The notes: a model not told the origin generated them from the letters alone. A stretch of DNA of 32,000 bases from Microcystis aeruginosa NIES-843 (GCF_000010625.1 NC_010296.1:870001-902000), one strand, 5' to 3'. Counted from the stretch's first letter, positions 2,649 through 31,637 are shown. Numbers and translations: made by a program.

Positions 2649-3670
2649 AATCTTCTTCGGCCTGTTGATGAGAGGTTTTGGCACAAGCACCTGACAGGGG
2701 GACAAGCCAGCTGAAAAGCTTATGTAGCATGGAATACAGACACAGACTTCCAAAAAAGATAAGTCATATATAGTAAATATGACCTAGAGAACAAAAATGA
2801 TAAGTGAACTATACCAGAAAGTGTTAGAAAATGAACTGGGGCGAGCCAGATATCTACTGTTGTTAATGATAGTTGGAACCTGGCAAATACTAAAGCAAGC
2901 CAAGTTAGAGATATTAGCAGAAGCACTACCAATACCAATCCTGTTTGAGAGTCGGCGAAAAAAACTAAAAAGATTTTTAAAGCTGGAAATTCTGAATATT
3001 GAAAGAATCTGGTTTCCCTGCCTAAAAGAGATGTTAAAACAGCAGGAGAGATTCACAATAAAAGGATTAGTATATATTGCCATAGACCGAACGATTTTGG
3101 GAGCAATTAATATCTTGATGGTGAGTCTGATTTATGACAAGAGAGCCATGCCAATCTATTGGGAGATATTAGATAAAAAAGGAAGTAGTAATCTCGAAGA
3201 ACAGCAGCGAGTATTAGAAAAAACATTGACCGTGCTATCAGGTCATAAAATAGTGGTGTTAGGAGATAGAGAATTTTGCTCGGTCAGTCTTGGGAAGTGG
3301 CTTCAGAAGCAGAGTTTATACTTTTGTTTAAGACAAAAAAAAAGCACAAATGTGAAGACGAAGGAAGGGATTTATCAAGAAATGAGAGAGTTAGGTTTAA
3401 GTCCAGGAACTCAATTATTTTTGCATGATGTAAATATTACAAAAGAGAAGGGATTTGGCGAGTTTAACTTAGCGGGTAAGTGGAAAAAAACTTATCGGGG
3501 TTTTCAAACAAAAGAGCCTTGGTATATTCTGACTAACTTTGGAGATTTAGAGACGGCAATAATGGCCTATCAAAAAAGATTTGATATTGAGGAGATGTTC
3601 CGAGATTTTAAGTCGGGAGGCTATAGCTTAGAAGGTTCTCAATTAGCACCGAAATACCTATCAAAGCTGA

Positions 3671-4708
3671 TATAGCAATTCTCTGACTTATGAGGTACAG
3701 TAGCAACAGTGAGTAAACCAATTGCGAATATCTTTTTGAGTAACTTCTAACATAGCCAATTCAATCCCTTCTATTAAGTCTTTGTAAGTTCTCGCCTTCA
3801 GTTTTCTTAACGTCGCTTTCACTTTTGACCAAAAGTTTTCAATAGGAGAGAATTCGGGAGAATAAGGAGGTAAATAGATGAGTCTAGCTTTTTCTTGTTC
3901 GATTATTTCTCTGACCATTTCTCCGAGATGAATCTTGGCGTTATCCATGATCAGACAGTCTCCTTCTTTAATTTTTGGCAGCACTTCCTTTAGAATAAAT
4001 CCTTCAAATGTTACCGCATCCACTGCACCGTATATGTTGACTGATGCGACAACTTTTTCTCAGCTTATAGCACTAATTATTGAAATATTTCTCCCTCTTT
4101 TTTGTGGTTTTCTTCCCCGAGCTCTTCGGCCAATTAAGGCTCTAGCATAGAGTCTCAAAAGGGCTAAATTTACCCCCGATTCCTCGATGAAAATTAGTTT
4201 TGATGCCTCAATTTCCCGAACTTCTGACCAGTATTCCACTCTTTTTTGCTCTACCCTGTCACTTTCTTTTTCCGCCGCGTGTAGTGTTTTTTTTTGAAAC
4301 TGTAATTGAGTTTTTGCGTAAGCCGCCCCAGGGTGGCTCTACTGACTTTCACCTGTGTCTTTTCATACAGTAAGTCCGATAATTCTTCGAGAGTTGCATC
4401 ATTGTTAGCTTCGATGATTTCTATTAAAATTATCAGTTGTTCACTATTTAACTTGGTTGGCGGACTTCCCCCTTGCGGACGAGGACGGATATCTCCTGTT
4501 TCTTTATGTTGCTTCAATAACTTCTGAATAAAGCTTTTAGCCACGTCAAATCTCTGGGCTAGTCCTCGAATGGAAATTTTTTCTTTCTTCCAGACATCGA
4601 TAATTTTTTGGCGAAAATCTACGGAATAGGGTCTCATAGGAAGCTGGTAAGTTCTATTATTTGTCTATTTACTTTCTATTGTACCTCATAGCTCCAAGAA
4701 TTGCTATA
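3671..4708 (-). mobile_element. IS630-family IS, copy A (1038 bp including the TA duplication)
   Basis: 28-bp IRs (TATAGCAATTCT..GAG.TATGAGGTAC) flanked by TA. It is near-identical to copy B at 25932-26969. Confidence 0.9.
3688..4637 (-). pseudogene. IS630-family transposase, copy A, inactivated by a nonsense codon
   Basis: Same two-frame organisation as copy B. The codon at 4060-4062 (plus strand TCA, minus strand TGA) replaces TTA (Leu) of copy B and truncates the DDE-domain frame. Confidence 0.8.
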
Positions 4709-5358
4709 ATTGTTATAGCTATCGCCTATACAAGTGCCACACTACAAGGTAAAAAAATTAAGAATATGGGAATCCAAAAATATGTCACAAGACCTGAAAA
4801 AAGATATAAAGGTCAACGCAGACACAGCAGTTTTTATGTGGGTCAACATCTCTATCATTGGCTCCAGCTACATCAAATGTTCCCAAAAAATATAGAAGAG
4901 CTAATGCAAATTAGCCGCTATCGGTTGAAGGATTACATCAAGGGACAAAGAGCTATATCGCTTGCCCTATCTACCTTCTAGCTCGCTTGTCCCCCTCTCA
5001 GGTGGCAACGAGGTCTATACTGATAGTTTCTTCGGCAAAATAGCCCTAAAAGTCTTACCCGATAAACATTTCACGATTCCATAAGCAAAAATTATCACAC
5101 AAAGTCGAGAAGAGCCATGAATACGAATAACGATAGACAACATCTCAAATTATTATCAATCTTCCACTATATTGTGGGAGGGATTCTTGCCTTTTTCTCT
5201 CTCTTTCCACTTATCCACTTTACTATCGGTTTACTCATCATTACCGAATCTATTTCAGTACATTCATCGAAAATTTGGGTCTGAAACCCCGTCGTTCTAC
5301 GACGGCTTTACCGTTAAATATGAGCATCGTTTACGAAATATATGCTAAAATGTGAGGT

Positions 5359-6547
5359 ATGGAAAAAGCCTATTCTTACCGATTTTACCCAACACCAGAA
5401 CAAGAGTCGCTATTGCGGCGCACTTTGGGCTGTGTAAGATTGGTTTACAATAAAGCTCTCCACGAACGAACACAAGCTTGGTATGAAAGACAAGAAAGAG
5501 TAGGCTACGCTCAAACTTCTTCAATGTTGACCGATTGGAAAAAGCAAGAAGAATTAGACTTTTTAAACGAAGTTAGCTGTGTACCTTTACAACAAGGGTT
5601 AAGACACCTACAAACAGCTTTTACTAATTTCTTTGCTGGTCGTACTAAGTATCCTAACTTTAAGAAAAAACATCAGGGAGGAAGTGCCGAATTTACCAAG
5701 TCTGCTTTTAAATTTAAAGACAAACAAATCTATTTAGCCAAATGCACAGAACCTTTACCTATTCGATGGTCAAGACAAATCCCAGAAAGCTGTGAACCAA
5801 GCACAGTAACAGTCAGATTACATCCTTCTGGACGTTGGCATATTTCAATAAGATTTGATGACCCAACGATTAAGCCTCTACCAGTAACAGATAAAGCCAT
5901 TGGAATTGACTTAGGAATTAGTAGCCTCGTGATTACCAGCGATGGTGACAAAGTATCTAATCCTAAGCATTTTAAGAAACATTATCGGAGACTGCGAAGA
6001 GCATCTAAAAGTCTTTCTCGAAAACAGAAAGGGTCAAAAAATCGGGAAAAAGCGAGAATCAAAGTAGCCAAGATTCACGCTCGAATCACCGATAACAGAA
6101 AAGACCATTTACACAAGCTAACCACTCAATTAGTTCGTGAAAACCAAACGATTGTGGTTGAGAATTTAGCCGTCAAGAATATGGTCAAAAACCCCAAGTT
6201 ATCTCAGGCAATATCTGATGTAAGCTGGGGTGAAATCACCCGACAATTAGCCTATAAATGCCGTTGGTATGGGAGAAATTACATCGAAATAGATAGATGG
6301 TTTCCTAGCTCTAAAAGGTGTAGTAATTGCGGGTATATTGCCCTTGAAAATGCCGTTAAATGTTCGAGAATGGGACTGTCCAGACTGTGGGACTCACCAC
6401 GACCGAGATATTAACGCTAGTAAAAATATTTTGGCCGCAGGGCTTGCGGTGTCAGTCTGTAGAGCGACCATAAGACCAGAACAGAGTAAATCTGTTAAGG
6501 CAGGTGCGGAACCCCGCAAGGGAAAGAAGCAGAAACCTAAATCGTGA
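5359..6547 (+). pseudogene. tnpB: TnpB (OrfB) RNA-guided nuclease homologue with one frameshift
   Basis: RuvC-like motifs are present ([24 protein letters not shown]) together with a zinc finger (CSNCG...CPDCG). The reading frame changes around 6335-6350: ORF 5359-6414 continues in ORF 6338-6547. Confidence 0.85.
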
Positions 6548-6592
6548 GGTTTGGGAATCACCGTCCGTTTACGGCGGTGAGGATGTCAAATT
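6420..6592 (+). ncRNA. Putative omega-RNA (reRNA) scaffold overlapping the tnpB 3' end and right end
   Basis: Assigned by analogy with characterised TnpB elements, where the guide RNA derives from the tnpB 3' end plus RE. A conserved hairpin, CACCGTCCG-TTTA-CGGCGGTG, lies at the extreme right end. There are no expression data. Confidence 0.4.
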
Positions 6593-7532: not shown

Positions 7533-8615
7533 TTAACCATTGATAGCAGGAGCAATCAGAGCTACAGGAGCCTGTTCACCACTAGCCAAGTCTAAGGGGA
7601 AGTTGTGAGCATTGCGCTCGTGCATTACTTCCATACCGATACCAGCGCGGTTCAGCACATCGGCCCAAGTACCGATTACACGACCTTGAGAATCGAGAAT
7701 CGACTGGTTGAAGTTGAAACCGTTGAGGTTAAACGCCATGGTGCTAACACCCATCGCCGTAAACCAGATACCGATTACCGGCCAAGCACCTAAGAAGAAG
7801 TGCAGAGAGCGGCTGTTGTTGAAAGAAGCGTATTGGAAGATTAAACGTCCGAAGTAACCGTGAGCGGCAACGATATTGTAGGTTTCTTCTTCTTGACCGA
7901 ATTTGTAACCGTAGTTCTGAGATTCGATTTCAGTGGTTTCACGCACTAAGGAAGAAGTTACTAGAGAACCGTGCATCGCACTGAACAAGGAACCGCCGAA
8001 CACACCGGCAACACCTAACATATGGAAGGGGTGCATCAGGATGTTATGTTCTGCTTGGAACACGAACATAAAGTTAAAGGTTCCAGAGATTCCTAAAGGC
8101 ATACCATCAGAGAAGGAACCTTGTCCGATGGGATAGATTAAGAATACAGCAGTAGCGGCGGATACGGGTGCAGAGTAAGCTACACAGATCCAAGGACGCA
8201 TTCCTAAACGGAAAGACAGTTCCCACTGACGACCGAGGTAGCAGAAGACACCTAGTAAGAAGTGGAAAATGACTAACTGGTAAGGACCACCGTTGTATAA
8301 CCACTCATCTAAGGAAGCAGCTTCCCAGATGGGGTAGAAGTGGAGTCCAATCGCGTTGGAGGAGGGAACAACCGCACCGGAGATGATGTTGTTTCCGTAA
8401 AGTAGAGAACCGGCTACAGGCTCGCGGATACCGTCGATATCTACAGGAGGAGCGGCGATAAAGGCGATGATGAAGCAGGTGGTGGCGGTGAGCAGGGTGG
8501 GGATCATGATGACACCGAACCAACCGATGTATAAACGGTTGTTGGTGCTGGTGATCCACTGACAGAACTGCTCCCACAGGGAAGCGCTCTCGCGCTGTTG
8601 TAGAGTGGTGGTCAT
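7533..8615 (-). CDS. psbA: Photosystem II D1 protein, copy 1
   Basis: 360-aa ORF beginning [23 protein letters not shown] and ending ...APAING, unmistakably D1. The protein is identical to the other two copies. Confidence 0.98.
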
Positions 8616-9263: not shown

Positions 9264-9467
9264 TTACAGTAAACCTGTATTAGTCCCCGGTTTGCCAGTA
9301 GCTAACTGCACTTTGACAATTTTGCCGCCCATTTTCATGATGCGTTGTTGCTCACGAAACCAATTATCGTAGGGAACGAGTTTGGTGAAATAGGTATTTT
9401 GTAATTCCCGTTGTGTCCGAATGCGGCTTTGGCTAGGAACACAAGCGGTGATTTTGAACATCCGCAT
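9264..9467 (-). CDS. apcC: Phycobilisome core linker protein Lc7.8
   Basis: 67-aa ORF, MRMFKITACVPSQSRIRTQRELQNTYFTKLVPYDNWFREQQRIMKMGGKIVKV, a CpcD-like domain. It lies downstream of apcAB. Confidence 0.9.
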   Translation of the reverse strand: MRMFKITACVPSQSRIRTQRELQNTYFTKLVPYDNWFREQQRIMKMGGKIVKVQLATGKPGTNTGLL

Positions 9468-9527
9468 GGATTGATTTCTCCTAATCGCTGAAAAACTTGT
9501 CGCTCAAACTAATGAAGGCTTTTTCCT

Positions 9528-9916
9528 AAATTGACATCCTCACCGCCGTAAACGGACGGTGATTCCTCACCACGCCACCTTTTTAGGGTGGTCGCTGAAT
9601 GGGGTTGACGCTTCACCGAAAAACGCTTAATTGCTTAAGTCTGACACTTTCTCCACGTCCATTTAAAGTCTCCGAATGCCCTTCGGCGACTGATTTAATT
9701 TTGGTTTATACATACCGACACAGGGTATGTTTTGCCTCTAGCATGGAGTTCCCAGCGGCCGTCAGCTTACCCTTACTCATCGTCAACCCGTTGCAGGAAT
9801 TTCAACCTAGTATATTTATTCGGTCGTATCTATGATAGGGCGGGTTTTTTAGACCAGTAAGATTTTAACACAAAGCCGCCCTAAAAGGGGCGGGGTTTTC
9901 AACCCAAATTTTCGAT
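9528..9916 (-). mobile_element. Non-autonomous (TnpB-less) miniature IS200/IS605-type element with an omega-RNA-like right end
   Basis: On the minus strand the left end, ATCGAAAATTTGGGTTGAAAACCCCG plus hairpin plus GGCTTT, matches the left end at 5266. The right end contains the identical 36-mer found at 6554-6589 (here 9531-9566). There is no intact ORF, though degenerate tnpB C-terminal-like coding traces are visible. Confidence 0.7.
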
Positions 9917-10041
9917 AACAAAGGTCGGGAGTCAAGGATCAATACTAGCTCGTCAAAACCTATCTTGGCCAGATTCAGCCTTTAAAGACCTAGCACTCAT
10001 CCTCGGCTTCCCGAACCCTATTTTGTCCGAGTTCGTTACTT

Positions 10042-10527
10042 CTAGCTTAAGCCAGAGCTAATGTAGTCGAAGTAAATCCCCATTTCCTTACCCGCATCAG
10101 CACCGACTAAACTAGCGGTGACTTCTTTCATCGCTTGGATAGCTTGAACGGTGGAGGAGATGGGTACACCTAAAGAGTTGTAGGTTTCTTTCAGGCCGTT
10201 GAGAACGCGCTCGTCGAGGATAGAAGGATCTCCAGCTAACATAGCGTAGGTAGCATAACGGAGATAGTAGTCGAGGTCACGGATACAAGCGGCGTAACGA
10301 CGGGTGGTGTACATATTACCACCGGGACGGGTTACGTCAGAGTATAACAGGGACTTAGCCACAGCTTCCTTAACGATACCAGCAGCGTTGGCGCTAATGA
10401 CACTAGCGGCGCGCACGCGCAGTTCACCGGTGGCGAAGTAGCCTTTCAGTTTGCCGAGAGCAGAAGCGTCAAGGTATTTGCCTTGAACGTCAGCAGAGTT
10501 GATAACAGAAGTAATTGCGTCTTGCAT
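10042..10527 (-). CDS. apcB: Allophycocyanin beta subunit
   Basis: 161-aa ORF beginning [20 protein letters not shown], a phycobiliprotein fold. It lies downstream of apcA. Confidence 0.95.
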
Positions 10528-10606: not shown

Positions 10607-11092
10607 CTAGGACATAGAGCCGATCACGTAATCGAAGTAGGAAGAAGCTTCAGAAGCATCGTCAGAAGACATAAGACCAGTAGCAACTTCTTTCATTTCG
10701 CGAACGCTTTGAGCTACGGCACCGATGTCGGTTCCTAAAGATTTGTACATTTCACGCACACCGACCAAACCGATTTCTTCAATCGGGGTGACATCACCAG
10801 CAACTACTCCGTAGGTGATTAAACGTAGGTAGTAGTCCATGTCACGCAGACAGGTAGCGGTCATTTCTTCGCCGTAAGCGTTGCCACCGGGGGAAACGAT
10901 GTCAGGACGTTTTTGGAATAAGCGATCGCCAGCTTGTTTGACGATGGTTTCGCGAGCGCCGGTCAGGGTTTCGGCGATGCGTAAACGAGCGGCACCACTG
11001 CCAACGAAGGCTTTAATTCTGTCTAGTTCGCCGGGGCTGAGGTAACGAGCTTCAGCATCAGCATTCACGATCGATTTCGTGACGATACTCAT
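10607..11092 (-). CDS. apcA: Allophycocyanin alpha subunit
   Basis: 161-aa ORF beginning [27 protein letters not shown]. Confidence 0.95.
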
Positions 11093-11308
11093 TGATGGAT
11101 TCCTCCCAACTAAGTGAGATTAATAAACTTAATCTGACATTTTATAGCAGTTGTGGTCACTACGCTCAAGTTATCTCGTTTCCGCCTCAGCGTCTCAAGA
11201 CTTCCCTAGCTAGAGCGACCTAACGCAACTATTTTGCGGCATCTGGTTCACCTTCTCACTATTTTCGTAATACTTTTTAACATTTGCCCTGAGAAAGGAT
11301 CACCGGAG

Positions 11309-11362
11309 TGGGGTGTGGGGTGTGGGGTGTGGGGTGTGGGGTGTGGGGTGTGGGGTGTGGGG
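11309..11362. repeat. G-rich heptanucleotide repeat (TGGGGTG)n, about 7.7 units with 8 GGGG tracts
   Basis: Direct reading. It lies between the ruvA stop and the apcA upstream region, and is C-rich on the apcA-sense strand. Confidence 0.9.
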
Positions 11363-12217: not shown

Positions 12218-13339
12218 ATGAATGGCAACATTAGAGTCGGGAATCTCTTTGGAATTCCCTTTTATATTAATCCTTCTTGGTTCTTTGTTCTGGGGTTAAT
12301 TACCTTGACCTATGGGGGAGATTTAAGTCAGTTTCCCCAGTTAACGGGAATCATGCCCTGGCTATTAGGATTTTTTGCCGCTATTCTCCTATTTGCCTCC
12401 GTGGTTGCCCACGAATTAGGTCATAGTTTTGTTGCCATCGCCCAAGGTATTGAAGTCAAATCAATTACCCTCTTTTTATTCGGTGGGTTGGCAACTCTCG
12501 GCAGAGAATCGAAAACTCCCCTAGAAGCTTTTCTAGTAGCAATTGCCGGCCCTTTAGTTAGTTTACTGCTCTTCGGTATCTTCCTAATTATTGGTTCCAA
12601 TATTAGCTTAAATGCGCCCCTGGCGGCGATTCTTTCTCTCCTGGCCTATATCAACCTCGCCCTAGGGTTATTTAACCTGATCCCCGGTTTACCTCTAGAT
12701 GGTGGTAATATCCTTAAAGCCATCGTCTGGCAAGTAACGGGTAATCCCAATAAAGGGGTTTTATTCGCTAGTCGTTTCGGTCAATTTTTTGGTTGGTTAG
12801 CGATTGTCATCGGTGCGCTATCAATTCTCGGAATCAGTCAATTTGGCAGTGCTTGGACGCTATTAATTGGCTTTTTCCTTCTACAAAATGCTGGCTTTTC
12901 CGCTCAATCAGCTAAGGTTCAAGATTTCCTAAGTCGCTACACCGCTAAAGATGTTATCTCTCCTAATAGTCCTGTAGTGCCGATTAATTTAACCCTGCGC
13001 GAGTTTGCTAATAATTATGTTATCGGTAAACAACAATGGTCTAAATTCCTAGTTACCGATAGCGAAGGTAAACTATTGGGGGTGATTAATGTAGAGGCTC
13101 TGAAAACGATTCCCACTTCCCAATGGACAGAGGTAAATATCGGCCAGTTATTACAAACTAGCGAAAGTCTTAAACTGGTTTTGTCTGATACTTCTCTCTT
13201 AGATGTGGTGAAAATTTTGGAAGGCGAAAATTTATCTCAAGTGACAGTGGTAGAAGAAAACGGCACAGTTTTGGGATTAATTGAGAAAGCTTCTATCCTT
13301 ACTTTTCTCGCCCAAGAAACCCAAAGTCAAGCCGCTTAA
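12218..13339 (+). CDS. Site-2 protease family (M50) zinc metalloprotease with a C-terminal CBS pair
   Basis: It has an HELGH zinc motif, multiple TM helices, NLIPGLPLDGG, and CBS-like C-terminal repeats. The start is chosen at the internal ATG 12218 (MNGNIRVGNLFGIPF) rather than the ORF-track start at 12110. Confidence 0.8.
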   Translation: MNGNIRVGNLFGIPFYINPSWFFVLGLITLTYGGDLSQFPQLTGIMPWLLGFFAAILLFASVVAHELGHSFVAIAQGIEVKSITLFLFGGLATLGRESKTPLEAFLVAIAGPLVSLLLFGIFLIIGSNISLNAPLAAILSLLAYINLALGLFNLIPGLPLDGGNILKAIVWQVTGNPNKGVLFASRFGQFFGWLAIVIGALSILGISQFGSAWTLLIGFFLLQNAGFSAQSAKVQDFLSRYTAKDVISPNSPVVPINLTLREFANNYVIGKQQWSKFLVTDSEGKLLGVINVEALKTIPTSQWTEVNIGQLLQTSESLKLVLSDTSLLDVVKILEGENLSQVTVVEENGTVLGLIEKASILTFLAQETQSQAA

Positions 13340-13340
13340 T

Positions 13341-13375
13341 CAGTTATCAGTTATCAGTTATCAGTTATCAGTTAG
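13341..13375. repeat. Heptanucleotide repeat (CAGTTAT)x5
   Basis: It starts one nucleotide after the TAA stop of the M50 protease gene. Confidence 0.9.
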
Positions 13376-13430
13376 GTAAATGTAATTTTCACCTCAATAT
13401 TCTCGCATAATTTTGTCTAGTATCTCCTGA

Positions 13431-18589: not shown

Positions 18590-20401
18590 ATGCAGTTAAT
18601 TGATTATGTAATTATCCTGCTTTATCTGGCAGGAACCCTAATAATCGGGATTATAGCCGAGAAAAAAGCTTCTCAAGGTCTAGAATCCTACTTTTTAGGT
18701 AATCGCAATTTGCCCTGGTGGATGTTAGGGGTGTCGGGAATGGCGGCTAACACCGATTTAGCGGGAACTATGGTCATTTCTGCCCTAATTTACGCCGTCG
18801 GCCCCAAAGGATTATTTATCGAAATCCGCGGCGGTGTTGTCCTAATTATGGCCTTTCTCATGGCTTTTATGGGCAAATGGAATCGCCGCGCCCAAGTTAT
18901 GACCATGGCGGAATGGATGCAATTTCGCTTTGGAACTGGAAAACAGGGGAATTTTGCCCGAATTATTAGCGCCGTCGCCACTCTCTTATTCTCTATCGGT
19001 GCGATGAGTTATTTCTCCGTTGCGGGGGGGAAATTTTTAGGGCAGTTTTTGGGCATGGATGATCGTCTTGCTTCGGTGATATTAATTCTTCTAACCTTAA
19101 TTTATACGGTGGCCAGTGGTTTTTATGGTGGGGTAATTACCGATTTATTTCAAGGATTTCTGATTTTTGTGGCGGTAATTTATGTATCGACAGTGGCTTT
19201 TTTTACTGTCAATCTTCCTGATAGTTTCACGGTAGCAATTCCGGGGGCAGCGGAGCCAAAAACTTGGAATTTAAGCGACTGGGCTAGTATTTTTCCTTCG
19301 ATGACTTTGGATTTACCCGGAGATTATGCCATCTTTAATTTGTTTGGTGGGGTGATTTTCTTTTATTTAGTTAAAACCATCATCGAAGGTTGCAGCGGCA
19401 GCGGTGGTTATATGTTACAACGATACCTAGCCGCCAAAAGCGATCGAGATGCCGGTTTATTATCTTTATTCTGGATTGTTCTGCTTTCTTTCCGTTGGCC
19501 TCTAGTCACAGCTTTTGCTGTTTTAGGCATTCACTACGGTTTAACCGAAGGCACGATTACAGATCCAGAAAGAATTCTGGCCACGGTCATTACTCAATAC
19601 ATTCCCGTGGGGATGAAAGGGTTATTAATTGCTGCTTTTTTAGCGGCAGCTATGTCCACTTTTAACGCAGTTATTAACGCTAGTGCTGCCTATTGGGTAA
19701 AAGATATCTATCAAGCTTTTTTGAAACCGAATGCGGGAGAACAGGAGTTAGTTTTTCAAGGTCGTTTGGCCTCGGTTTTTGTGGTAGTAATTGGCTTAGT
19801 TTTGAGTTTTAATATCCAAAATGTCAATGATATTTGGGGTTGGTTAACCACGGGATTAGGGGTGGGATTAGCAGTTCCTCTCCTATTACGTTGGTATTGG
19901 TGGCGCTTTAATGGTTATGGTTTTGCTGTGGGAACTTTAGCGGGAATGATTGCGGCTATTGCCTCACAAGTGATAATTTTACCTTTCTTTCGTCACAGTC
20001 AATATCAGGAATATATTCTCTTTCTTGTGCCGAGTTTGTTCGCTTTAGCTGGCTGTATTATCGCTACTTTGTTAACTCCTCCCACCGATAGTTTAGTTAT
20101 GGAAAATTTCTATAATGTTACCCGACCTTTTGGCTTTTGGGGAGAAGTCCGTCACAGTGTTAAACCTAATCTACAGGCAAAAATTAAAGCGGAAAATCAA
20201 CGGGATATCATTGCCGCTTTTCTCACTGTTCCTTGGCAATTAGTCCTCTTTATGATGGGGATTGTTTTAATCATCAAGCAGTGGCAAAGTTTGAAGATTT
20301 TGGCTTTGGTTTTTCTTTTACTTTCCATCGGTCTCTATTTTACTTGGTATCGCCACTTATCTAAGGAAATTACTGTCACTAAAGACCGAGATTTAGGTTA
20401 G
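18590..20401 (+). CDS. Sodium:solute symporter family (SSF) transporter
   Basis: About 600 aa with 13 or more predicted TM helices and SSF-like motifs. The start is placed at ATG 18590; the ORF track starts at TTG 18578. Confidence 0.7.
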   Translation: MQLIDYVIILLYLAGTLIIGIIAEKKASQGLESYFLGNRNLPWWMLGVSGMAANTDLAGTMVISALIYAVGPKGLFIEIRGGVVLIMAFLMAFMGKWNRRAQVMTMAEWMQFRFGTGKQGNFARIISAVATLLFSIGAMSYFSVAGGKFLGQFLGMDDRLASVILILLTLIYTVASGFYGGVITDLFQGFLIFVAVIYVSTVAFFTVNLPDSFTVAIPGAAEPKTWNLSDWASIFPSMTLDLPGDYAIFNLFGGVIFFYLVKTIIEGCSGSGGYMLQRYLAAKSDRDAGLLSLFWIVLLSFRWPLVTAFAVLGIHYGLTEGTITDPERILATVITQYIPVGMKGLLIAAFLAAAMSTFNAVINASAAYWVKDIYQAFLKPNAGEQELVFQGRLASVFVVVIGLVLSFNIQNVNDIWGWLTTGLGVGLAVPLLLRWYWWRFNGYGFAVGTLAGMIAAIASQVIILPFFRHSQYQEYILFLVPSLFALAGCIIATLLTPPTDSLVMENFYNVTRPFGFWGEVRHSVKPNLQAKIKAENQRDIIAAFLTVPWQLVLFMMGIVLIIKQWQSLKILALVFLLLSIGLYFTWYRHLSKEITVTKDRDLG

Positions 20402-20402
20402 G

Positions 20403-20510
20403 CAGTTATCAGTTATCAGTTATCAGTTATCAGTTATCAGTTTTAAGTTTTCAGTTTTCAGTTTTCAGTTATCAGTTTTCAGTTTTCAGTTTTCAGATTT
20501 GAGTTTTAAG
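20403..20510. repeat. Heptanucleotide repeat arm (CAGTTAT)5 followed by (CAGTTTT)n
   Basis: It starts 2 nt after the TAG stop of the SSF transporter gene. Confidence 0.9.
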
Positions 20511-20544
20511 TGTGCAGTATGGATTAGGTGAGCCTCATCAAATG

Positions 20545-20722
20545 CCAGTTTTCTACTGTCTTTTCACTGATTACTGTTTACTGATTACTGTTTACTGAAA
20601 ATAGCAGTTTCCTACTGTCTTTTTACTGATTACTGATTACTGATTACTGATTACTGATTACTGTTTACTGAAAATAGCAGTTTTCTACTGTCTTTTCATT
20701 GTTTACTGTTTACTGATCACTG
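20545..20722. repeat. Higher-order repeat: three units of [GCAGTTTYCTACTGTCTTTTYAY + (TGATTAC/TGTTTAC)n + TGAAAATA]
   Basis: Direct reading. The heptads are the complement-strand form of the CAGTAAT/CAGTAAA repeat seen at 1112-1226. Confidence 0.85.
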
Positions 20723-20738
20723 AATTAGGAGAGATCCC

Positions 20739-20767
20739 TTGACTTTTGCGGCGGCTTGGGTTATGAT
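20739..20767 (+). promoter_or_regulatory. Candidate promoter TTGACT-N17-TATGAT
   Basis: Sequence match only. A second TATAAT lies at 20773-20778, and a 19-codon hydrophobic sORF starts at 20777. Confidence 0.3.
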
Positions 20768-21584: not shown

Positions 21585-22667
21585 ATGACCACCACTCTAC
21601 AACAGCGCGAGAGCGCTTCCCTGTGGGAGCAGTTCTGTCAGTGGATCACCAGCACCAACAACCGCTTATACATCGGTTGGTTCGGTGTCATCATGATCCC
21701 CACCCTGCTCACCGCCACCACCTGCTTCATCATCGCCTTTATCGCCGCTCCTCCCGTAGATATCGACGGTATCCGCGAGCCTGTAGCCGGTTCTCTACTC
21801 TACGGAAACAACATCATCTCCGGTGCGGTTGTTCCCTCTTCCAACGCGATTGGACTCCACTTCTACCCCATCTGGGAAGCTGCTTCCTTAGATGAGTGGT
21901 TATACAACGGTGGTCCCTACCAGTTAGTCATTTTCCACTTCTTACTAGGTGTCTTCTGCTACCTCGGTCGTCAGTGGGAACTGTCTTTCCGTTTAGGAAT
22001 GCGTCCTTGGATCTGTGTTGCTTACTCCGCACCTGTATCCGCCGCTACTGCTGTATTCTTAATCTATCCCATCGGACAAGGTTCCTTCTCTGATGGTATG
22101 CCTTTAGGAATCTCTGGAACCTTTAACTTTATGTTCGTGTTCCAAGCAGAACATAACATCCTGATGCACCCCTTCCATATGTTAGGTGTTGCCGGTGTGT
22201 TCGGCGGTTCCTTGTTCAGTGCGATGCACGGTTCCCTAGTAACTTCTTCCTTAGTGCGTGAAACCACGGAAATCGAATCTCAGAACTACGGTTACAAATT
22301 CGGTCAAGAGGAAGAAACCTACAATATCGTTGCCGCTCACGGTTACTTCGGACGCTTAATCTTCCAATACGCTTCTTTCAACAATAGCCGCTCTCTGCAC
22401 TTCTTCTTAGGTGCTTGGCCGGTAATCGGTATCTGGTTTACGGCAATGGGTGTTAGCACCATGGCGTTTAACCTCAACGGGTTCAACTTCAACCAGTCGA
22501 TTCTCGATTCTCAAGGTCGTGTAATCGGTACTTGGGCCGATGTGCTGAACCGCGCTGGTATCGGTATGGAAGTAATGCACGAGCGCAATGCTCACAACTT
22601 CCCCTTAGACTTGGCTAGTGGTGAACAGGCTCCTGTAGCTCTGATTGCTCCTGCTATCAATGGTTAA
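21585..22667 (+). CDS. psbA: Photosystem II D1 protein, copy 2
   Basis: The 360-aa protein is identical to copies 1 and 3. The DNA differs at scattered synonymous sites, and the upstream region is distinct. Confidence 0.98.
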
Positions 22668-23417: not shown

Positions 23418-23710
23418 GCCGCTCACGGTTACTTCGGACGTTTAATACTAAATCCGTTGAGTATATGCTGCTTATAAGGACAGGCAAAAGGCCACCCCCC
23501 CTGCCCCCCGACATCGGGGGGCAGGGGGGAATAAATAATCAGTTTTTAATAACCGGATTTAGTATTATCGGTACTTGGGCCGATGTCTTAAACCGCGCTG
23601 GTATCGGTATGGAAGTAATGCACGAGCGTAATGCACATAACTTCCCCTTAGACTTGGCTAGTGGCGAACAGGCTCCTGTAGCTCTGATTGCTCCTGCTAT
23701 CAATGGTTAA
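23418..23710 (+). pseudogene. psbA: psbA 3' remnant (29-bp and 143-bp psbA-homologous blocks separated by a palindromic element)
   Basis: 23418-23446 matches psbA ...GCCGCTCACGGTTACTTCGGACGTTTAAT. 23568-23710 encodes ...[47 protein letters not shown] plus the stop. The full psbA terminator follows. Confidence 0.9.
23444..23567. repeat. 124-bp palindromic MITE-like element
   Basis: Terminal inverted repeats AATACTAAATCCG / CGGATTTAGTATT. The central perfect hairpin is CCCCCCTGCCCCCCGA-CA-TCGGGGGGCAGGGGGG. Confidence 0.6.
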
Positions 23711-23730
23711 TTCCTAGTCTGAATGAAAAG

Positions 23731-23756
23731 GCACTCCCGCGAGGGGGTGCTTTTTT
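23731..23756 (+). terminator. Duplicated psbA terminator after the remnant
   Basis: The hairpin and T-run are identical to those of copy 2. Confidence 0.75.
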
Positions 23757-23810
23757 GTTGTTAGAATTGGGGAACGGGGTACAATAAAAGGGACTTCTCT
23801 AGGCGGAAAT

Positions 23811-25931: not shown

Positions 25932-26969
25932 TATAGCAATTCTTGGAGCTATGAGGTACAATAGAAAGTAAATAGACAAATAATAGAACTTACCAGCTTC
26001 CTATGAGACCCTATTCCGTAGATTTTCGCCAAAAAATTATCGATGTCTGGAAGAAAGAAAAAATTTCCATTCGAGGACTAGCCCAGAGATTTGACGTGGC
26101 TAAAAGCTTTATTCAGAAGTTATTGAAGCAACATAAAGAAACAGGAGATATCCGTCCTCGTCCGCAAGGGGGAAGTCCGCCAACCAAGTTAAATAGTGAA
26201 CAACTGATAATTTTAATAGAAATCATCGAAGCTAACAATGATGCAACTCTCGAAGAATTATCGGACTTACTGTATGAAAAGACACAGGTGAAAGTCAGTA
26301 GAGCCACCCTGGGGCGGCTTACGCAAAAACTCAATTACAGTTTCAAAAAAAAACACTACACGCGGCGGAAAAAGAAAGTGACAGGGTACAGCAAAAAAGA
26401 GTGGAATACTGGTCAGAAGTTCGGGAAATTGAGGCATCAAAACTAATTTTCATCGAGGAATCGGGGGTAAATTTAGCCCTTTTGAGACTCTATGCTAGAG
26501 CCTTAATTGGCCGAAGAGCTCGGGGAAGAAAACCACAAAAAAGAGGGAGAAATATTTCAATAATTAGTGCTATAAGCTTAGAAAAAGTTGTCGCATCAGT
26601 CAACATATACGGTGCAGTGGATGCGGTAACATTTGAAGGATTTATTCTAAAGGAAGTGCTGCCAAAAATTAAAGAAGGAGACTGTCTGATCATGGATAAC
26701 GCCAAGATTCATCTCGGAGAAATGGTCAGAGAAATAATCGAACAAGAAAAAGCTAGACTCATCTATTTACCTCCTTATTCTCCCGAATTCTCTCCTATTG
26801 AAAACTTTTGGTCAAAAGTGAAAGCGACGTTAAGAAAACTGAAGGCGAGAACTTACAAAGACTTAATAGAAGGGATTGAATTGGCTATGTTAGAAGTTAC
26901 TCAAAAAGATATTCGCAATTGGTTTACTCACTGTTGCTACTGTACCTCATAAGTCAGAGAATTGCTATA
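25932..26969 (+). mobile_element. IS630-family IS, copy B (apparently intact)
   Basis: 28-bp IRs flanked by TA. It is near-identical to copy A (3671-4708) in inverted orientation. Confidence 0.9.
26003..26952 (+). CDS. IS630-family transposase in two overlapping frames, probably fused by a -1 frameshift at an A9 run
   Basis: ORF A is 26003-26446 (HTH domain) and ORF B is 26401-26952 (DDE; YLPPYSPEFSPIENFW). Reading in the -1 frame from the A9 run at 26345-26353 gives the family-typical KKKTLHAAEKESDRVQQKRVEYWSEV junction. Confidence 0.8.
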
Positions 26970-27142
26970 TTTAGAAGTTATCATCTTGTTAATTGATATT
27001 GGTAGTCACGATCAGGTGTATAGAAAATAGGCTAGACTAGACAGCGATCGCTGATATTGATCATAAGGTCATTTTTGAACATAGCTAAAATTGGATGGAT
27101 TTGGGAAAACTGATTCTAATTTTCTGGATTTTATTACACAAT

Positions 27143-30554: not shown

Positions 30555-31637
30555 ATGACCACCACTCTACAACAGCGCGAGAGCGCTTCCCTGTGGGAGC
30601 AGTTCTGTCAGTGGATCACCAGCACCAACAACCGTTTATACATCGGTTGGTTCGGTGTCATCATGATCCCCACCCTGCTCACCGCCACCACCTGCTTCAT
30701 CATCGCCTTTATCGCCGCTCCTCCTGTAGATATCGACGGTATCCGCGAGCCTGTAGCCGGTTCTCTACTTTACGGAAACAACATCATCTCCGGTGCGGTT
30801 GTTCCCTCCTCCAACGCGATTGGACTCCACTTCTACCCCATCTGGGAAGCTGCTTCCTTAGATGAGTGGTTATACAACGGTGGTCCTTACCAGTTAGTCA
30901 TTTTCCACTTCTTACTAGGTGTCTTCTGCTACCTCGGTCGTCAGTGGGAACTGTCTTTCCGTTTAGGAATGCGTCCTTGGATCTGTGTAGCTTACTCTGC
31001 ACCCGTATCCGCCGCTACTGCTGTATTCTTAATCTATCCCATCGGACAAGGTTCCTTCTCTGATGGTATGCCTTTAGGAATCTCTGGAACCTTTAACTTT
31101 ATGTTCGTGTTCCAAGCAGAACATAACATCCTGATGCACCCCTTCCATATGTTAGGTGTTGCCGGTGTGTTCGGCGGTTCCTTGTTCAGTGCGATGCACG
31201 GTTCTCTAGTAACTTCTTCCTTAGTGCGTGAAACCACTGAAATCGAATCTCAGAACTACGGTTACAAATTCGGTCAAGAGGAAGAAACCTACAATATCGT
31301 TGCCGCTCACGGTTACTTCGGACGTTTAATCTTCCAATACGCTTCTTTCAACAATAGCCGCTCTCTGCACTTCTTCTTAGGTGCTTGGCCGGTAATCGGT
31401 ATCTGGTTTACGGCAATGGGTGTTAGCACCATGGCGTTTAACCTCAATGGTTTTAACTTCAACCAGTCGATTCTCGATTCTCAAGGTCGTGTAATCGGTA
31501 CTTGGGCCGATGTGTTAAACCGCGCTGGTATCGGTATGGAAGTAATGCACGAGCGCAATGCTCACAACTTCCCCTTAGACTTGGCTAGTGGTGAACAGGC
31601 TCCTGTAGCTCTGATTGCTCCTGCTATCAATGGTTAA
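30555..31637 (+). CDS. psbA: Photosystem II D1 protein, copy 3
   Basis: The 360-aa protein is identical to the other copies. Confidence 0.98.

Follow-up and report, generated by a model that had tools for sequence, protein, structure and literature searches.

The stretch of DNA analysed here, called the window in what follows, is 32,000 nt long, comes from Microcystis aeruginosa NIES-843 (NC_010296.1:870001-902000) and contains the genes apcA, apcB and apcC (Table 1). The apcB ORF ends at 10042 and the apcC ORF starts at 9467, both on the minus strand, which leaves a spacer of 574 nt between them; these ORF ends are as a preliminary description of the sequence had placed them. Most of the spacer is taken up by an inserted unit which, as had also been described, is co-directional with the operon, with the insertion and all three genes on the minus strand. 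Exact look-up of the ApcC protein led to 10 Microcystis chromosomes or contigs, in each of which the neighbourhood is ruvA-apcA-apcB-apcC-msrB. An array of GGGGTGT repeats (11305-11360) stands upstream of apcA.

Table 1. Positions of the features discussed in the text, counted from the first letter of the window
Feature	Position	Strand	Remarks
Resident TnpB-only IS, 1322 nt	5268-6589	plus	tnpB 5359-6547; related but distinct lineage
apcC	9264-9467	minus	67 aa, CpcD-family linker; ORF; Pfam CpcD on the identical protein; 3' of the insertion
Predicted guide TTTAGGAAAAAGCCTTCATT	9511-9530	minus	Adjoins the right end on its 3' side; opens the 63-nt apcC leader (its first 20 nt)
384-nt non-autonomous IS200/IS605 element (PATE)	9531-9914	minus	Starts CGAAAATTTGGG, ends GGATGTCAA
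OmegaRNA-scaffold homologue, last 161 nt of the element	9531-9691	minus	Counterpart in full-length elements spans the tnpB 3' end and the right end
Right-end hairpin CACCG(T)CCG-TTTA-CGGCGGTG	9541-9561	minus	DNA fold z = -3.2; compensatory changes across the family
Left-end subterminal hairpin CCGCCCCTTTTAGGGCGG, then CTTTGTGTT	9876-9893	minus	DNA and RNA folds
TTAT target site, predicted TnpB TAM	9915-9918	minus	Directly 5' of the left end
apcB	10042-10527	minus	ORF; Pfam Phycobilisome in syntenic loci; 5' of the insertion
apcA	10607-11092	minus	ORF; Pfam Phycobilisome in syntenic loci

The length of the apcB-apcC spacer varies between strains: it is 190 nt in seven of the ten other Microcystis genomes (L001, L002, L004-L007 and L010) and takes the 574-nt form in three (L003, L008 and L009). 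CP142375.1, CP086723.1 and MVGR01000003.1 are among the records with the insertion, and CP116295.1 is one of those without it. Alignment of the alleles reduces the difference to a single exact insertion of 384 nt. Filled alleles read GTTAT/CGAAAA...GTCAA/TTTAGG where empty ones read GTTAT/TTTAGG (in the allele alignment, CCTTTGTTAT/CGAAAATTTGGG...GAGGATGTCAA/TTTAGGAAAAAGCC against CCTTTGTTAT/TTTAGGAAAAAGCC), and the position of the junction is unambiguous, as it cannot be shifted by even 1 nt. The preliminary description had proposed a unit of 389 nt running from 9916 to 9528 and a comparison of spacers for empty sites; the exact empty sites in seven of the ten genomes bear out the insertion unit itself and correct its extent to 384 nt, from 9914 to 9531. 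The AT of what had been given as ATCGAAAA belongs to the TTAT target, so the left boundary lies at 9914 and not at 9916, and the sequence past the right end starts TTTAGGAAAAAGCC and not, as had been read, AGGAAAAAGCC, which puts the earlier boundaries and guide off by 2-3 nt.

The insertion is seen in four independent assemblies and in one metagenome contig (L037), and it is this 384-nt unit that explains the strain-variable length of the apcB-apcC spacer in Microcystis. That the long spacer belongs natively to the apc operon as a conserved regulatory part, or else is an assembly artefact, can practically be discarded, since the short spacer with identical flanks in seven of ten genomes, the agreement of the independent assemblies and the metagenome contig, and the presence of the same type of 384-nt unit at unrelated loci all stand against it. 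Alleles with the insertion group together as nearest neighbours roughly but not cleanly, a pattern that a single insertion with later recombination could give and that does not separate such a history from repeated gain.

Other repeats occur in the window. Two inverted copies of 1039 nt (3670-4708 and 25932-26970) are 100% identical, and the first holds a 128-aa ORF (4251-4637) that resembles the N-terminus of a transposase by sequence; the pair is probably two copies of another IS, bracketing about 21 kb that include the apc operon. Three psbA-type genes of 360 aa, 98% alike, are located at 7533-8615 (minus), 21585-22667 (plus) and 30555-31637 (plus), with a psbA fragment of about 220 nt at about 23562-23784, so that all psbA-type copies lie within 32 kb. 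Tandem arrays of heptanucleotides of the CAGTTAT, GATAACT and CAGTAAA types are found at 1087-1405, 13336-13388 and 20394-20753.

Ends, target site and coding content of the element

In each of the 37 related copies whose left end was detected, TTAT stands directly 5' of the element. It also precedes most full-length elements of the Planktothrix type, while the TnpB element of the window has TCAT in this place. The left-end hairpin begins 21 nt inside the element, and conservation of the left end extends to 10 full-length elements and to a Chroococcidiopsis element with tnpA and tnpB. At the other end, the hairpin is imperfect, with one bulged T, and identical to 6559-6579 in the resident TnpB element. 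In elements of the IS200/IS605 group with IS608-type geometry, the right end is cleaved 10 nt past the hairpin, and TCAA is the IS608 right-end motif; here, TCAA (9534-9531) ends exactly 10 nt past the right-end hairpin. The right ends used, from the mini-element, the TnpB-linked 3' ends and the metagenome copies, all end GGATGT(C/T)AA, which is the motif by which they were located.

Filled and empty alleles reveal no target-site duplication at the 384-nt insertion, and there are no terminal inverted repeats, as the ends CGAAAATTT and GGATGTCAA are not inverted copies of each other. Both features are expected of elements moved by DDE transposases, and a classical DDE-type MITE is ruled out by their absence here. 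The element contains no sense-strand ORF of at least 40 aa. A 78-aa antisense ORF in the gap has no Pfam match, nor has any other gap ORF, and no tnpA is present within the 32-kb window. The sole protein trace in the element is an 18-aa match to the C-terminal tail of TnpB, in keeping with the earlier statement that no transposase or TnpB ORF remains apart from degenerate traces of the tnpB C-terminus. The unit in the gap is thus a TnpB-less, non-autonomous IS200/IS605 element (PATE) that encodes no protein, and the original designation as a TnpB-less mini IS200/IS605-type element holds on the strength of its clean junctions, TTAT target, hairpins and lack of an ORF.

The element shares both ends with the resident TnpB element. 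A 36-mer, GGAATCACCGTCCGTTTACGGCGGTGAGGATGTCAA, occurs at exactly two sites in the window, 6554-6589 (plus) and 9531-9566 (minus), as had been described, and was matched in none of 100 shuffles of the sequence; around it, the two right ends align at 44 of 46 positions (BLASTN). At the left, ATCGAAAATTTGGGT is found at 5266 (plus) and 9916 (minus) and nowhere else in the window, and the left ends align at 36 of 45 positions (BLASTN). The observation that the left end mirrors that of the element at 5266 with different stems is likewise correct: both fold at the same position and their stems are unlike.

OmegaRNA scaffold, parent lineage and mobile family

The preliminary description had called the right end omega-RNA-like. 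A covariance model of tnpB 3' ends, R1, was built from a seed of 17 TnpB-linked sequences only, with no PATE among them, and identifies a full-length omegaRNA-type module at 9531-9691 (minus; 137.3 bits, E 3.8e-35, model positions 1-174 of 174). The R1 structure has four helices with 96% of cells paired. Double changes occur in 10 of its 25 modelled pairs, compared with 3.0 +/- 1.3 in shuffled alignments and 1-3 in slid-partner controls, and none of 500 shuffles reaches 10; covariation in the terminal helix 4 is by itself no proof of an RNA role, since the same sequence forms, as DNA, the hairpin that TnpA binds. Every modelled helix is retained in the mini-element. Judged by the model, the sequence from 9691 to 9531 preserves the omegaRNA scaffold of a cyanobacterial TnpB lineage whole and with its structure intact.

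This scaffold RNA is without an existing Rfam family. Rfam release 15 gave nothing for the whole window at gathering thresholds, and a permissive scan gave no match to IS605-orfB-I or -II at E <= 10. HgcC (RF00062) appeared in the permissive scan at both right ends of the window with 16.0 and 14.2 bits, and these weak matches run through the hairpin and a GAGGAnGUCA motif. As the scores are far under the HgcC gathering cut-off of 50 bits, the element RNA is not a member of that family.

Conservation gives a mixed picture of the RNA. The RNA region of the mini-element is 86.6% identical to that of a full-length relative (L095), and one stem change between two Microcystis copies is compensatory, from C-G to T-A. 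Between copies, the RNA region is conserved no better than the rest of the element, and many family members are without the 5' half of the scaffold, so that selection on the RNA in TnpB-less copies is not evident.

The source of the element had been sought in its neighbour at 5266-6592. The TnpB of this resident element has the Pfam domains OrfB_IS605, HTH and TNB, but the TNB domain is split between two frames, one (5359-6414) matching profile positions 1-48 and the other (6338-6547) positions 38-60, which places a frameshift in the gene near 6340. The resident TnpB is 45% identical to the cognate TnpB of the mini-element. Beyond the last ~46 nt the two elements diverge; their RNA regions are 64% identical, and the 3' end of the resident element (6432-6589) scores 47.5 bits on R1 where the mini-element scores 137. 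On these grounds, and because better parents exist, the neighbour is rejected as the parent. The preliminary description would itself have given up its claim if the likeness of the ends stopped at the 36-mer: it goes somewhat further, to 44 of 46 positions, and then breaks off, so that this outcome was very nearly reached.

The better parents are two. The metagenome contig L095 carries an element of 1709 nt that agrees with the mini-element in left end, right end and TTAT target and has a 403-aa TnpB with all three Pfam domains. In M. aeruginosa PCC 9443 (HE972983.1; L101), the last ~75 nt of the copy equal the mini-element allele of L003 and L008, 36-mer included, which means that this right end is common to Microcystis lineages of the IS605 type and does not indicate descent from the neighbour. 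It is very likely that the mini-element arose by internal deletion from a TnpB-only IS200/IS605 element of Microcystis, of the lineage represented by PCC 9443 and contig L095. Two further observations concern these parents. The copy in PCC 9443 has an in-frame TAA early in tnpB (at ~1460-1500, …CCAACAGACTAACAAAAG…), owing to which the gene is called short, at 383 aa, and this full-length copy may be inactive. In L095, the stretch from the left end to tnpB is filled with CAGTTAT arrays like those of the window.

TnpB of the cognate lineage turns up widely among the draft genomes and MAGs of Microcystis, with M. aeruginosa, M. panniformis and M. wesenbergii among the NCBI source names of its 90% clusters. 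Among the matches listed, all members and clusters are on contigs of less than 0.5 Mb and none is on a complete chromosome, a weak indication that the strains with complete genomes, including L008 and L009, may lack an intact cognate TnpB.

Relatives of the mini-element were found at other loci. A scan of species-representative genomes with the 5' core pattern of the omegaRNA gave a second copy of the 384/385-nt type at an unrelated locus of Microcystis sp. LSC13-02, after GTTAT and with 91% column identity (flanks included), as well as about a dozen full-length elements with TnpB ORFs of 370-420 aa in Planktothrix and other Oscillatoriales. That only one other Microcystis copy was obtained in this way is explained by the loss of the 5' core from most family members. 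Metagenomes, scanned for a motif of the 3' half, yielded 68 loci with 46 distinct right flanks; as the pattern misses the CATTGACGCG variant of L003 and L008, these family counts are lower bounds. Three sites carry the 384/385-nt type: the apc spacer, where contig L037 has it as well, the locus in LSC13-02, and one more in the metagenomes; a second subfamily has a different interior and lengths of 133 to 358 nt. Together, these relatives define a Microcystis PATE family with the predicted TAM TTAT that went undetected in the window scan with Rfam release 15.

Outside Microcystis, the scan of species-representative genomes led to a cyanobacterial MAG (L025, ~120-490, minus) that holds a TnpB-less element of ~366 nt whose left end and RNA module are homologous (107.7 bits on R1) and whose interior is different, showing that the protein-less form is not confined to this genus. 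A plasmid collection gave four short matches that are not close relatives, comprising Planktothrix- and Acaryochloris-type tnpB 3' ends and a tnpA-linked left end. On plasmid p1 of M. aeruginosa NIES-2481, a left-end-like sequence (L099, 2501-2553) lies between the genes of a Uma2-family endonuclease and CyRepA1; it may be a short family member on a plasmid.

The metagenome loci provide some further observations. At several sites, elements of different lengths occupy one site across samples (L031/L094/L063/L097; L050/L083; L065/L078; L053/L072). These series, for example 133, 168, 205 and 223 nt at one site, look like nested internal deletions and may be real decay in place or artefacts of metagenome assembly. 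Two loci (L058 and L079) have an identical left flank (…CTCGAAGTCTTAT) and different right flanks, which suggests recombination between family copies or a chimeric assembly. Twelve of about 24 distinct insertion sites interrupt an ORF that reads through for at least 100 aa once the element is exactly removed, 10 of them in the sense orientation (the interrupted loci are L039, L042, L043, L052, L053, L055, L061, L066, L076, L086, L089 and L090). This sense excess could stem from lagging-strand insertion combined with gene-strand bias, or from tolerance of sense insertions. Intergenic copies show no sense-orientation bias, for which reason a family-wide rule of sense orientation was dropped, and the orientation in the apc operon is no evidence of a requirement.

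Predicted guide segment, transcription and possible effect on apcC

Empty alleles read TTAT/TTTAGGAAAAAGCCTTCG, so the predicted guide equals the sequence of the empty site beside TTAT, and the predicted target in the empty allele is TTAT-TTTAGGAAAAAGCCTTC. The window contains no second match to the guide (9530 to 9511) with up to 3 mismatches. The natural target would be the empty apc allele (TTAT plus TTTAGGAAAAAGCC), and the expected role of such a guide is retention or homing rather than the regulation of other loci. At the filled site, TCAA and not TTAT precedes the match, which should protect it.

The history and a proposed function of the element can be put together as follows. In one part of the Microcystis population, the element entered the apcB-apcC spacer whole, directly after TTAT. 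It retains the left- and right-end hairpins needed by a Y1 TnpA transposase and would be mobile only with TnpA supplied in trans, a related left end adjoining tnpA-tnpB in Chroococcidiopsis. RNA made across the element in the apc sense would carry the scaffold and then the guide TTTAGGAAAAAGCCTTCATT, and a cognate TnpB, if present, could be directed by this RNA to cut copies of the empty site, recognised by TTAT and the match to the guide. The break would then be mended from a chromosome copy that is filled, which would bring the element back.

A retention model for TnpB has been published (Meers et al. 2023, PMC10055086), and PATEs often encode omegaRNAs that would be used in trans by the TnpB of other elements (PMC10055086); trans use of a PATE omegaRNA is thus an existing proposal and not new here. 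Taken as a whole, a PATE from the TnpB lineage of PCC 9443 and L095, together with a putative omegaRNA-based retention, is strongly favoured as the explanation of the locus. Its parts are not equally firm. The mini-element as a source of an orphan guide is plausible from its layout, and use of the RNA by a TnpB in NIES-843 itself is somewhat doubtful.

The main rival touches only this last step. In this rival reading the element is a dead relic, the omegaRNA module being idle here because there is no cognate TnpB or because the RNA is not processed, and the insertion persists by drift and linkage. This has about an even chance of being right. The TnpB of the window is distant and frameshifted, the cognate TnpB members listed are all on short contigs, the RNA region shows no extra conservation between copies, and nested deletions take out the scaffold in many relatives, all of which would be expected of a relic. 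The full length of the scaffold here with all modelled helices kept, the compensatory C-G to T-A change and the wide distribution of the cognate TnpB lineage in Microcystis argue against it.

Transcription bears on the retention model and on apcC alike. No consensus-type promoter was detected in the 63 nt between the element and apcC, and any transcript arriving at apcC has probably run through the element in the omegaRNA sense. The left-end hairpin CCGCCCCTTTTAGGGCGG followed by CTTTGTGTT resembles an intrinsic terminator and is alone in this on the sense strand from apcA to apcC; in the empty allele, no terminator-like site reads in the sense direction. The insertion may therefore have some polar effect on apcC, and judging from its fold, the hairpin could also limit read-through into the scaffold. 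The left-end hairpin of IS200 reportedly terminates impinging transcription (Beuzon et al. 1999). A polar insertion, in which this hairpin and its U-rich tail end part of the apcAB transcripts before apcC, would be compatible with the other readings. It is nevertheless unlikely, because the stem is short (5-6 pairs; -14 kcal/mol together with the neighbouring hairpin, z = -1.2) and its tail is interrupted, and because the ApcC protein is identical in the filled alleles and hence presumably still expressed.

A stronger form of the proposal makes use of the sense position in a strongly transcribed operon. An unusually abundant, trans-acting omegaRNA would be made that leads a TnpB of the parent lineage to cut empty apc alleles. 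If this is true, the insertion would spread by drive among the many chromosomes within a Microcystis cell and, where DNA is exchanged, from strain to strain; in the same reading, binding or processing of the scaffold by TnpB might uncouple apcC from apcAB. Such a role is improbable. The same low standing applies to the version of the preliminary description, by which a deletion derivative of the element at 5266-6592 gives rise, through read-through of the operon, to an orphan guide for other protospacers or to a regulator of apcC. The identical 36-nt block, the similar left ends and the sense orientation inside the apc operon had made it attractive. It conflicts with the sequence divergence and model scores reported above, with the closer parents L095 and L101 and with the 36-mer in PCC 9443, which removes the tie to the neighbour, while the guide, which must match the empty site of its own element by construction, matches nothing else in the window, and intergenic family copies are without sense bias.

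Relation to known systems and significance

The element is closest in kind to PATEs, including the PATE-like elements of Geobacillus stearothermophilus (PMC10055086), with which it has in common the lack of a protein gene, ends and subterminal hairpins shared with TnpB-bearing relatives, and presumed mobilisation by TnpA in trans. It differs from the PATEs of that study (PMC10055086) in its Microcystis host, its TnpB lineage and its predicted TAM TTAT, in having a copy in sense orientation inside a photosynthetic operon with exact empty alleles in sister strains, and in being known from sequence alone.

In the TnpA-TnpB-omegaRNA systems of IS608 and ISDra2 (Karvelis 2021, Altae-Tran 2021), a fixed tetranucleotide serves both as the TAM and as the target on whose 3' side insertion occurs. 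The mini-element follows this plan in its tetranucleotide target and putative TAM, the lack of a target duplication and the TCAA 10 nt past the hairpin. Its scaffold also overlaps the tnpB 3' end and the right end, with flanking DNA as the guide, a likeness that here concerns geometry only. Unlike these systems, it has neither tnpA nor tnpB, its TAM would be TTAT instead of TTAC or TTGAT, and its scaffold has no match to the Rfam IS605-orfB families. Usable TAM data for ISTel2 or ISMae were not found in the literature.

RNAs from such elements are known in archaea. In Halobacterium salinarum, sotRNAs arise from the 3' ends of IS1341-type tnpB, the PATE-derived VNG_R0052 is transcribed, and HgcC has been linked both to these tnpB 3' RNAs and to the PATE-derived RNA (Gomes-Filho et al. 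2015, PMC4615843). The terminal hairpin of these RNAs resembles the right end described here (PMC4615843), but they are archaeal, and the HgcC scores of 16 and 14 bits in the window compare with a cut-off of 50.

Short, non-coding, multi-copy mobile elements have been described from Microcystis before, namely MaeMITEa-h of M. aeruginosa NIES-843 (PMC2779907) and a 187-nt ISL3-derived MITE of PCC 7806 that is co-transcribed with the gene it interrupts (PMC11448079). Going by their descriptions, these are set apart by terminal inverted repeats and direct target repeats, neither of which the mini-element has. Another likeness is to a cyanobacterial non-autonomous derivative of the IS200/IS605 type, by description only: the Nezha MITE of Anabaena and Nostoc is said to derive from an ISNpu3-like element of that type (Zhou et al. 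2008).

Protein-less selfish elements of the PATE kind are already known, and the main use of the present locus is as a test case for guide RNAs acting in trans. It amounts to a natural experiment, in which cultured strains with complete genomes carry the apc operon with and without a protein-less, scaffold-bearing element. The locus could therefore show whether the omegaRNAs of TnpB-less elements, so far proposed to act in trans, are made and used in this way, and whether such insertions alter the stoichiometry of phycobilisome core components.
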